From: a virus
IMG/VR virus record: IMGVR_UViG_3300046810_000166
Coordinates: 1 to 64,000 of that record
DNA length: 64,000 nt
Direction: 5' to 3' (one strand)
Shown: positions 36,050 through 38,618 of the stretch, piece after piece
How the letters are laid out: every line of letters starts with the position of its first letter
How positions within the stretch are numbered: position 1 is the stretch's first letter
Program-made: the position numbers and the translations under genes
The notes under the pieces: generated by a model
What the model was told of the DNA's origin: nothing
The model's input: only the letters and a program-made list of their open reading frames with translations
Databases searched by the model: none

Positions 36050-38618
36050 AGGATGGGCAAATACATCGGTTCCGACAGCTTCGCACGGTTTCGCGGCCGC
36101 GTACTCCCTGACCTGTCAGCCGGATTACGGTTCACCCACTCGGCTGGATTCTGACCGGGCCTCGACCTTCCTTTCTGCTTGTGGCGCGAACCTACAGCGG
36201 CAGCTGATTCGGTCTATCTGTAGCCAGTCTCCAGCCGAATGGGGCCTCTTTCGAGGCTCCACCGGGGCATGTTGCCTTTACGCGGAACTGTTCATGCCCT
36301 TCCCCGCGCACAGGCGTGTCGACCCGCCTGCTAGTGATGCCGGGCTATTTTCACCGGCTACGTGTTCGCGCGATCTGATCGCGTCGATCTTGACGGCTCG
36401 ACCAATGCCGAGCGGCTACGATCATGCGGCATCACATAAAGAACGGCTGAGGACGATTCAGCAGCATCCAACCATTCACATCCCCTCACAAGGGCGGGAG
36501 AGCGTAGGAACTTAATCTACGGGTTCACCGGGTTGGTCGTATAGCTTGGCCCATCTACTTTGTTTCGCACCAGCGTGGTTTTCCGGTCCCGCGCCTTAGC
36601 TACTGATTTCAATTGCCCGTTCTTTATGTGATGGCCGGGCCGTAACCCCCGGCGTTGACTCCCTGCCCTTCTCGGGTTTTCAGGCATCACAGCCCTGCAT
36701 CCTGTTCCGCGTGGCCGGAGTCGAACCGGGCTACCATCACGCTGGGACCGCGCCGCGCTTGCAAACGCATTGCGGTGTTCGGCCGAACTTACAAGACGCA
36801 GGGCTGTGATGGCCGACTTGCAAGGCCGGCTTTAGCTAGGGGGCCGCAGATCAAAGACTAGAACTTTCCAATCTAGGCTTAGTCACCCCCTCATCACACA
36901 GCTTGACCCTTCGCCGATCGTCACCGGCACGATTGAGGCAGGGACTCGAACCCCGCAATGCCGCCCTTCTGGAGCGCCGCTGTACCACTTCGCGTTCTCA
37001 ATCTAAAGACCAAGCTGTGTGACGGCCGGGTCGCAACCCCGGCGTGAGCTGTCGATGCATGACGCCCATATAGCGTTATCGACAAGAACTACTCTGTCAT
37101 GCATCCGCCACACTGCGGTGGCCGGGGCGCAACTCCCGGCTGAGCTGTAGAGGTGCCGGCAATCTATTGGCGAGATTCCGTGACACAAACAACAAAATGG
37201 CACCTCACACCACACTGCTGGAAGCTGGAGGCAGTCCCGTCATCGCCGGTCAATCCCGACAAATCCAACTCCCAGCAGTGTGGTGGCTCGCCCTGCCCGA
37301 GCCGGCCGGGCGTTGGCACCCGGCGTCGTTCGATGATCCCACCCGCTCGTCGCGGTCCCTTTTTGGAGTGCCTTGCGGCGCCACCGGGATACTGGCGGCT
37401 TCTCATTACCACACACATGCACCCGGCCTGCTGTCACAGCCGAATGACGCCTCACAGGCCGCCAGCGAGCAAACCGGCATTCAAGCGCGACCATCAGCAA
37501 GGTGCATGTGTCTGGTGCCGGGTTCTTTCCCCCCGGCGTAAGTCAGGCCAGTAGCTTGCCAGAGCGCCCTTCTCACACCGCGCAACGTCCATAGCCGCCT
37601 CGTTGACGAGGTTCCTCACCTCGATTCCCTGCCGCGCGCGTCACATGCCGGTGACTGTTGAAGCCTTGTGTTCATGCCGCTACTTTTCCGGCTGGCCACC
37701 CACTATTGATCATGCATCATCGTAGGTTCGGCTCCTTGGTAGACATTTACTATGACCGTCTTGAAGGGGCAAAGCCATCCAGTCATCCATCACCACTGCT
37801 GTTCGGTGCCGCTATTTCCCGGCTGCCAGCCTTATTTCCACCGACTCATGACGCCTCGGCGTGCGTCGCAATATCCCGTCCGGCTTGGGTCCGAGGCCTA
37901 TCTACTTACTCCTCGACATTGCACCGTGTTGTTCCGGCTCTCGCCGGCACGTGTAGAGCAACCATCCTTCGTGGTTTCCCACATGGATGGAACTGGTTGA
38001 CCCAGCGCGGCGCTGTCGGGCCCCTACTTTACCTGCGCAGAGATCCATGTTGACCGCTACCGCTTGGCAGTCCCATCCATGTGAGGCCTCTTGCGAAGCT
38101 GCACACGCCCGTCTAATGGCACACTCGGGTCCGCCTAATCGCTTGTTTCCATCGACGCACTGGTCAGGTCGGCCCCCTGAAACATGCCGCCTGAGCCTAG
38201 CCGCCGCCGTTGTAGCCGCGATGCTTTGCTGGTCACCCCTGCCTTTCGTGACAGGAACACGGTTGATGAATCGTGGCGCCACGGTTCCCGCGTGCTTACA
38301 TTTACACCACTGACCAGCTGATAAGCCGACTTCCTTCCACGCCCGAGGCTATAGTGCTCGGTGCCTTTCCAGATGATGGCTTGTCAGCTGGGACTGTTGC
38401 CAGTCCAAGCCTAGATCACTCGAAGTCCATGCCTGAATGGGGCATGAAAGTTGGAGCCGATCTGGATGTGTCTTTCATCACCCCCCTGCAGCACAGGGCC
38501 ATCGTATGGTGAATAAGCTACGGCCTTGTCGGTGCCCATCCGCACCTACGGCCTGTTCTGCCCTGATAAGCACCTTTGCGCTTATCGGGACATGCTGCTT
38601 TGCTGCTGAACTTCAATG
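36050..38618 (-). ncRNA. Large structured ncRNA / array of tRNA- or C4-like modules
   Basis: No credible ORFs; repeated UGUGRYG...GCCGG-hairpin-CRYCRCA modules; 16-22 bp stems whose mismatches are mostly G-U on the minus strand; GNRA loops. Confidence 0.8.
36931..37003 (-). ncRNA. tRNA-like element with defective anticodon arm (pseudo-tRNA or mimic)
   Basis: GAUUGAG/CUCAAUC acceptor stem, AGUGGUA D-loop, GGUUCGAGUCC T-arm, 5-nt anticodon loop, no U8, no CCA. Confidence 0.72.

Follow-up and report, generated by a model that had tools for sequence, protein, structure and literature searches.

The regulatory RNA C4 of phages P1 and P7 and the CI RNA of phage P4 are cut from longer transcripts by RNase P. 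The array described here, in which long stems alternate with tRNA-shaped modules, shares several features with these RNAs. Its modules are small structured phage RNAs closed by a terminal helix (P1), they are embedded in what appears to be a longer repressor-linked transcript, and their variable loops could serve as antisense elements. C4 contains two adjacent hairpins and a linker before the 3′ strand of P1, whereas in the modules a GC hairpin abuts this strand directly. The covariance model of C4 antisense RNA (RF01695, gathering score 45 bits) recovered two copies with scores of 75 and 68 bits from a P1-like phage, which served as a positive control. The best match in the whole phage studied here scores 9.5 bits and is located outside the array, and the array region contains no match at E ≤ 10. 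We therefore rejected C4 as an identification, and the label "C4-like" for the modules fails the covariance-model test.

In rRNA operons and in the early RNA of phage T7, long stems are RNase III sites that flank the mature RNAs, and tRNAs are located in the spacers. The array similarly combines cargo-flanking long helices with interleaved tRNA-shaped elements in one precursor. It differs from these systems in that its stems share strands with the tRNA-shaped elements, in the length of 16–17 bp of three of its stems (a, e, and f), and in being described from sequence instead of from cleavage. A third group of comparable systems links hairpin RNAs to tRNAs, and includes the tRNA-miRNA of murine gammaherpesvirus 68, the small stable RNAs of the phage T4 tRNA cluster, and synthetic tRNA-guide arrays. 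What the array shares with them is the use of tRNA-like elements as punctuation, which would enable the release of neighbouring small RNAs by the tRNA processing of the host, but the organisms and the polymerase differ. For none of these tRNA-linked hairpin systems is a conserved overlap of the tRNA-like helix and the neighbouring hairpin known. The reading of the array that we favour, with a confidence somewhat short of even, is that the stems are RNA helices of an alternating transcript, that their overlap with P1 is conserved in a large phage RNA family in which both pairings are selected, and that ordered processing of the transcript would release small RNAs.

The window, which is the whole stretch of DNA analysed, comprises the first 64 kb of a complete virus record of 93,688 bp with direct terminal repeats. 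The phage genome has a GC content of 66%, and a rhizosphere metagenome is the only sequencing run that contains the entire stretch. According to GC3, every gene between 28.6 and 43.1 kb is located on the minus strand, and the segment 36090–38880 contains no coding-like ORF. The minus-strand genes upstream of the array encode a replication or primosomal protein, a YbcO/HNH nuclease, NinB/Orf, and a protein with a match to a Holliday-junction-resolvase PHROG, and a DNA methylase is encoded downstream of the array. Judging by these genes, the neighbourhood is similar to the early "nin" region of temperate lambdoid phages. Relatives of the two flanking proteins (35086–35520 and 38887–39189, both on the minus strand) are absent from viral contigs.

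A putative promoter of the array can be read from the sequence at 38625–38653 of the minus strand. It consists of a −35 element TTGCAC (38653–38648), a 17-nt spacer, and a −10 element TATGAT (38630–38625), and the spacer contains a candidate palindromic operator, ACGCATTGCGT (38639–38649, minus strand). The site was not called in a consensus promoter scan, because its −35 element is weak, with only three of six matches. A second copy of the promoter-operator arrangement is located at about 35640–35680, also on the minus strand. The promoter/terminator scan identified a strong intrinsic terminator on the minus strand at 35699–35726, in which a stem with seven G-C pairs (35726–35706) is followed by a run of seven T residues. 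The 3′ end of the transcript contains a small minus-strand ORF (35874–36043, 56 amino acids from the ATG at 36043) with a GC3 of 0.73, which has no Pfam or PHROG match. The best explanation of the array is a repressor-controlled, polycistronic, non-coding minus-strand transcript of about 2.9 kb from a temperate phage with a genome of 93.7 kb.

The tRNA-shaped modules were located with a descriptor scan for a GC hairpin followed at once by seven bases that can pair with a 7-mer positioned 15–170 nt upstream. The scan returned five modules on the minus strand: de (37414 to 37278), cd1 (37214 to 37114), cd2 (37112 to 37018), bc (36898 to 36805), and ab (36691 to 36627). A sixth module, the last in the array (36436 to 36335, minus strand), was found by folding. 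Each module contains, in this order, the P1 5′ strand UGUGRYG, a variable hairpin, a linker of 8–10 nt, a GC hairpin of the form GCCGGG-loop-CCCGGC, and the P1 3′ strand CRYCACA. The terminal helix is of the UGUGRYG/CRYCACA type in all six modules and has a length of 7 bp, shortened to 6 bp in the last one. The P1 helix of module de is formed by GUGUGGU and ACCACAC and encloses several inner hairpins and a GC hairpin GGCUCG..CGAGCC that abuts the P1 3′ strand. Module cd1 has P1 strands UGUGGUG and CACCGCA, a variable hairpin, the linker ACAGCUCA, and a GC hairpin. The P1 helices are UGUGGCG/CGUCACA in cd2 and UGUGAUG/CAUCACA in both bc and ab, of which ab, with 65 nt, is the smallest module. 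In the last module, P1 is UGUGAU/AUCACU-like and the GC hairpin contains a bulge. Modules cd1 and cd2 adjoin directly, with no long stem between them.

In the window modules the GC hairpin is located immediately 5′ of the P1 3′ strand, a feature that is partly circular because it belongs to the pattern used for fishing. This arrangement produces a stack of 12–13 bp that is similar to that of the acceptor and T-arm of a tRNA. When isolated from the array, each module folds into a three-way junction that includes the P1 helix. Neither ARAGORN nor Rfam (RF00005) called a tRNA between positions 35500 and 38800, a segment that includes a tRNA-like cloverleaf at 36931–37003.

The long stems were identified as inverted repeats in a repeat search and then checked pair by pair. 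All six stems listed in the initial annotation were returned and confirmed at their positions; the boundaries from the search were slightly offset or extended for two of them, stem b (36680–705/36791–816) and stem c (36885–905/37011–031). Stem a (36430–446/36617–633) is a perfect helix of 17 bp that encloses a cargo of 170 nt. In a 3-kb stretch, about 7e-5 perfect inverted repeats of 17 bp within 400 nt would be expected by chance. Stem b (36685–705/36791–811) has 21 bp, including a G·U pair at position 15 and a U·G pair at position 18, and its cargo includes a canonical T-arm as well as one operator copy. Stem c (36892–911/37005–024) has 20 bp, with G·U pairs at positions 2, 15, 16, and 18. 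It encloses one hairpin and the cloverleaf, which was seen in the minimum-energy structure only. Stem d (37208–229/37264–285) has 22 bp and a loop of 34 nt, with G·U at position 15 and U·G at position 18. Stem e (37408–423/37501–516) has 16 bp with one G:G mismatch on the RNA (C:C on the plus strand), and is preceded on the RNA by a GC hairpin at 37517–37537. Stem f (37980–995/38068–083) has 16 bp, one G·U pair, and a loop of 72 nt; its arms start with CACA and end with UGUG, but it has no resolved module. All of these stems are read on the minus strand, as is a further imperfect stem of 19 bp downstream of the array (36135–153/36225–243), which was found by the repeat search and verified by the pair check. 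Counted from the outer end, G·U at position 15 and U·G at position 18 occur in the same orientation in stems b, c, and d, and pair-by-pair reading of stems c and d identified at least three compensatory pair changes between them.

The mismatches within the six stems indicate which strand is folded. Of the ten positions that lack a Watson-Crick pair, nine read C:A on the plus strand and G·U on minus-strand RNA, in agreement with the initial annotation. The tenth is the C:C mismatch of stem e, and no G:T is found on the plus strand. If single transitions were strand-neutral, the one-sided probability of a split of nine to zero would be about 0.002. Two outlying stems with mismatches that favour the plus strand had also been noticed: the stem 38314–327/38378–391 has one T:G, and 35787–802/35833–848 has two G:T and one C:A. 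All six long stems are present in the minimum-energy structure predicted for the minus strand. The segment 36320–37530 folds with an energy of −566 kcal/mol on the minus strand (z = −8.2), compared with −499 kcal/mol on the plus strand (z = −6.7), and the corresponding z-scores of the segment 37531–38620 are −3.0 and −1.1. The G·U asymmetry, the energy gap between the strands, the terminator, and the co-orientation with tRNA genes in relatives support the earlier proposal that selection acts on the single-stranded fold of the minus strand.

The outer parts of the long stems are built from the P1 strands of the neighbouring modules. The 3′ arm of each of the stems a–e terminates with the P1 5′ strand of the module that follows (UGUGAUG, UGUGGUG, or GUGUGGU). 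The 5′ arm of stems a–d starts, with zero linker, with the P1 3′ strand of the preceding module (CAUCACA, CGUCACA, or CACCACA). The strand sharing that had been ascribed to the first five stems thus comprises the outer 7 bp and both arms in stems a–d, and is limited to the 3′ arm in stem e. The 5′ arm of stem e adjoins the GC hairpin, and a search upstream of it gave no convincing P1 partner. Since the outer 7 bp of the stems are the P1 strands of their neighbours, one UGUGRYG has two alternative CRYCACA partners. The stem and P1 pairings use the same strands in the window and are mutually exclusive, as had been suggested. The four-way junction that had been proposed to connect them was not borne out; the geometry is that of an exchange among three strands, namely the stem 5′ arm, the P1 5′ strand, and the P1 3′ strand. 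In module cd2, the strand CGUCACA fits both of its partners. It pairs with its own UGUGGCG, with one G·U and one C-G, and with UGUGAUG of the next module, with one A-U and one G·U.

The modules have relatives in a phage RNA family, which was fished with a pattern from the 3′ end of a window module, GC hairpin included. The family is present in 173 phage records, and its members were found in P1-like, lambdoid, and Klebsiella phages. The consensus consists of UGUGGUG-AAU, a D-like hairpin, a variable insert of about 10–150 nt, GCCGG-AGAUCAGCA-CCGGC, and then CAUCACA or CACCACA. Family members adjoin tRNA genes and have the same orientation. In the P1-like phage JL22, three units are positioned directly after tRNA-Asn and tRNA-Thr and are overlain by ORFs annotated on the opposite strand, and small hypothetical ORFs run across the units in P1-like records. 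The P1 helix is 99.5% paired over 27 aligned modules, including a U-A to C-G double change. Its compensatory changes are C6-G2′ in three modules and C3-G5′ in the members with UGCG/CGCA. The D-like hairpin of the relatives has arms GCGCA and UGCGC and a loop GGCUGA, which kisses the loop of the GC hairpin. This loop-loop kiss is 87.5% paired and covaries, with a GUCGA/UCGAC double change.

The array and the family have a common scaffold: P1 is a 7-bp helix UGUGRYG/CRYCACA, a GC hairpin of the form GCCGG..CCGGC directly adjoins its 3′ strand, one insert is hypervariable, and the P1 5′ strand is overlapped by a long stem located upstream. Both are located in early or accessory regions of temperate phages. 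Unlike in the relatives, neither the D-like hairpin GCGCAGGCUGAUGCGC nor the loop-loop kiss is present in any of the six window modules. Furthermore, the overlap of stem and P1 is 7 nt in the window and 4 nt in the family, at least six tandem units are present in the window and one to three in the relatives, and the inner stem sequence of the window is unlike that of the family. A covariance model (R1) constructed without window sequences matched four window modules, with scores of 29.5 bits for cd2 (E = 4e-6), 21.0 for bc, 16.4 for ab, and 12.2 for cd1, and with E-values from 4e-6 to 0.12. The matches have exact ends, are on the minus strand, and rank first, second, third, and fifth in 14 kb, but they are partly circular, because the family loci were fished with a window-derived pattern. 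Typical members score 56–95 bits, except for three at 25–35 bits. Because of this circularity and of the missing D-like hairpin and kiss, the window modules are best treated as a divergent sub-type of the family.

Rfam contains no match for the array at the gathering threshold or at E ≤ 10, and none for a typical family member; in 12 related loci it identified only tRNAs. A literature search found no description of the RNA family, which is large, lacks an Rfam model, and is apparently uncatalogued. A blastn search with the 3-kb region gave no match in phage or plasmid collections. Pattern scanning of genome contigs returned chance matches in high-GC genomes only, none of which has a UGUG 5′ strand. 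Locus L006 from the first pattern scan was rejected as a chance match, and is positioned in an apparent coding sequence.

A stem of about 20 bp precedes nearly every module of the family. Its 5′ arm has the sequence CACAAC-A-GG-U-AAGAGCAYUG, its 3′ arm ends in GUUGUG, and its cargo often contains a T-arm. The last four bases of the 3′ arm are positions 1–4 of P1, and in 79 of 104 distinct contexts the stem extends to P1 position 1. Pairing over the 18 pairs of the stem amounts to 94.4%, and 12 of these pairs show a compensatory change, a result that was reached in none of 500 shuffles. The UGUG segment is paired with CACA (48), CAUA (9), CGCA (6), or UACA (4), and the departures from CACA are almost all wobbles on the transcribed strand. 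Where the P1 5′ strand contains UGCG and the 3′ strand CGCA, CGCA likewise occurs in the 5′ arm of the stem at three loci, as well as in the third JL22 unit; in three other cases with UGCG the 5′ arm is uncompensated.

The strand sharing could be a trivial by-product of tandem copies that carry one P1, in which case the inner stems would be ordinary spacer hairpins and no switching would take place. The near identity of P1 in all six window modules and the direct abutment of cd1 and cd2 are in accord with this explanation. However, single-copy relatives too have an upstream stem with a CACA of its own that overlaps P1, and the 5′ arm of this stem covaries with P1. Within the window, the spacer hairpins reach P1 with zero linker in five of five cases, and the cd2 strand fits both partners through wobbles. 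We therefore consider the by-product explanation improbable. The comparison of the relatives suggests instead that the overlap of stem and P1 strands is a conserved design of the family, beyond what tandem repetition would produce. The long-stem and P1 pairings both appear to be under selection, as the relatives covary with both partners. In the window, the double fit of the cd2 strand and the wobbles retained at positions 15 and 18 of stems b, c, and d point in the same direction. The need for one strand to stay compatible with two partners would account for the conservation of the P1 sequence itself, beyond that of its pairing, between E. coli phages and a phage with 66% GC.

Constrained folding of the precursor from 37530 to 36320 gave an energy of −585 kcal/mol with all long stems formed and −518 kcal/mol with all P1 helices formed. 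Over 1.2 kb, the all-long-stem state is thus favoured over the all-P1 state by about 67 kcal/mol, and the unconstrained minimum-energy fold is also in favour of the long stems. In addition, transcription from 5′ to 3′ completes each long stem before the competing P1 3′ strand exists. Because both the folding energy and the order of transcription favour the long stems, the precursor should adopt the long-stem state. It follows from these models that the P1 helix probably forms only after cleavage or with help, and may never form in the precursor. The same energies and order of synthesis agree with the view that only the long-stem state is real, and that the RNA is one large scaffold or a string of hairpins whose P1 helices never form at all. 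This view does not account for the compensatory changes of P1 in the family, for the GC hairpin that always abuts the P1 3′ strand to give an acceptor/T-arm-like stack, or for the formation of P1 in isolated modules, and we regard it as having a small probability.

Relatives of the array itself are present in four other sequencing runs, one of which is an RNA library. Stem b and its cargo occur in these runs with one difference in 120–133 nt, and constitute the most conserved cassette of the array, whereas other pieces of the array differ by about 5–13%. The same cassettes are arranged in a different order. The breakpoints of homology at 36627, 36685/36691, and 36804/36805 are the 7-nt P1 repeats. 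Because the homology breaks coincide with these repeats, the array can be described as a mosaic of cassettes joined at shared 7-mers. In one relative, reading of loose-end contigs identified a counterpart of stem a that has 16 bp and differs by two compensatory pair changes. The RNA-library run X8, which contains contigs of a relative, was rejected as proof of transcription, since contigs alone show none. Exact patterns derived from the stem-b cargo gave no match in viral or metagenome contigs. When the remainder of the phage genome was searched for sequences that the array could target as antisense RNA, the longest matches were GC-rich and had 15 nt, none reaching 16 nt, and about 28 12-mer and two 14-mer matches are expected by chance. 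Self-targeting is unsupported, because the antisense matches are at the chance level.

The shuffling of cassettes at P1 repeats would also fit a function at the level of DNA, in which single-stranded hairpins or cruciforms act as attC-like recombination sites and G·T wobbles are tolerated in the DNA hairpins. Nevertheless, ordinary recombination between short repeats suffices for such shuffling. The outer boxes of the stems, CATCACA/TGTGATG, are unlike the attC core RYYYAAC/GTTRRRY, the cassettes contain no ORFs, and no integrase is found among the flanking genes that have a match. Moreover, the units are tRNA-shaped and, in relatives, co-oriented with tRNA genes under promoters. The array was therefore rejected as an integron attC array, an attC-like role of the DNA is unlikely, and we give the DNA-level explanation as a whole very little credence.

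In the reading that we prefer, the transcript would alternate long stems of 16–22 bp, which enclose an often tRNA-like cargo, with tRNA-shaped modules. During transcription, each long stem would close first and sequester the P1 strands. A double-strand nuclease such as RNase III would then cut the long stems, as in rRNA operons. On refolding, UGUGRYG could pair within each freed piece with the CRYCACA that this piece contains, and the resulting acceptor/T-arm-like minihelices might be trimmed by tRNA-processing enzymes such as RNase P. A second set of small RNAs would consist of the released stem cargoes. We infer the action of RNase III or RNase P and the order of these events. RNase III recognises about two helical turns and leaves 3′ overhangs of 2 nt; stems b, c, and d, with 20–22 bp, may be compared with this length, and stems a, e, and f, with 16–17 bp, are short for classical RNase III sites. 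A more far-reaching proposal, which we regard as rather unlikely, is that the three-strand overlap is a purpose-built folding switch that times the release of two classes of small RNA from a single transcript, tRNA-shaped scaffolds with swappable arms and hairpin cargoes, and that the cassettes are exchanged between phages at the P1 repeats.

What is new here is that the strand sharing is conserved in a wide phage RNA family, with covariation of the stem. The unit of a long stem and a tRNA-shaped module is carried by phage P1 and by many lambdoid and Klebsiella phages, and lies outside Rfam. Its architecture could be read because the array of the high-GC rhizosphere phage is larger and more regular than any other found here. 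The presence of a strand with two compatible partners across distant phages points to a conserved logic of folding or processing. If the folding switch is real, the array would be a multiplexed factory of small RNAs and a natural analogue of engineered tRNA-guide arrays. If the units are processed small RNAs with swappable arms, they would represent a widespread and unexplored layer of the interaction between phages and their hosts, in which they may function as decoys, guides, or regulators.

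The cassettes, or exchangeable pieces, of the array at positions 36627-37561 of the window recur in four other sequencing runs that contain relatives of the array (X2, X3, X8, and X9), and their order is changed. The breakpoints between cassettes are located at the 7-nt repeats that form the P1 helices of the tRNA-shaped modules. Stem b and the cargo that it encloses are approximately 99% identical between the window and the four runs, and the remaining array pieces diverge by approximately 5-13%. Long stems b (36685-36811), c (36892-37024), and d (37208-37285) all contain a G·U pair at position 15 and a U·G pair at position 18, counted from the outer end, and the orientation of each wobble pair is identical in the three stems.

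The cargo of stem b includes a 13-nt copy (36764-36776) of an operator-containing sequence (ACCGCAATGCGTT and its complement) located in the putative downstream promoter (35652-35664). The cargo at 36931-37003 on the minus strand is cloverleaf-like, with a canonical T-arm and an abnormal anticodon loop, and was not called as a tRNA by ARAGORN or Rfam.

The 5' half of the transcript (37520-38620, minus strand) is less regular than the rest, and its fold z-score is only -3.0. It contains GC hairpins of the GCCG..CGGC type and some helices, for example at 38229-38317, and no canonical P1. A 56-residue, coiled-coil-like open reading frame (35874-36043, minus strand), which has no family match in Pfam or PHROG, is positioned between the array and the terminator, and is therefore probably co-transcribed with the array.

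Related units occur in other loci. Escherichia phage JL22 of the genus Punavirus (locus L101, 2429-3324) carries three units of a long stem and a module on the same strand, after tRNA-Asn and tRNA-Thr. The annotated open reading frames plp and gp76 overlie these units on the opposite strand, and may thus be mis-annotations. Locus L030 contains a compact unit (oriented positions 8578-8860, minus strand) beneath a near-consensus promoter. The unit is composed of a tRNA (anticodon GUG), one small hairpin, a stem of 20 bp overlapping P1, and a module that lacks the D-like hairpin, and is the nearest architecture to the divergent module sub-type of the window.
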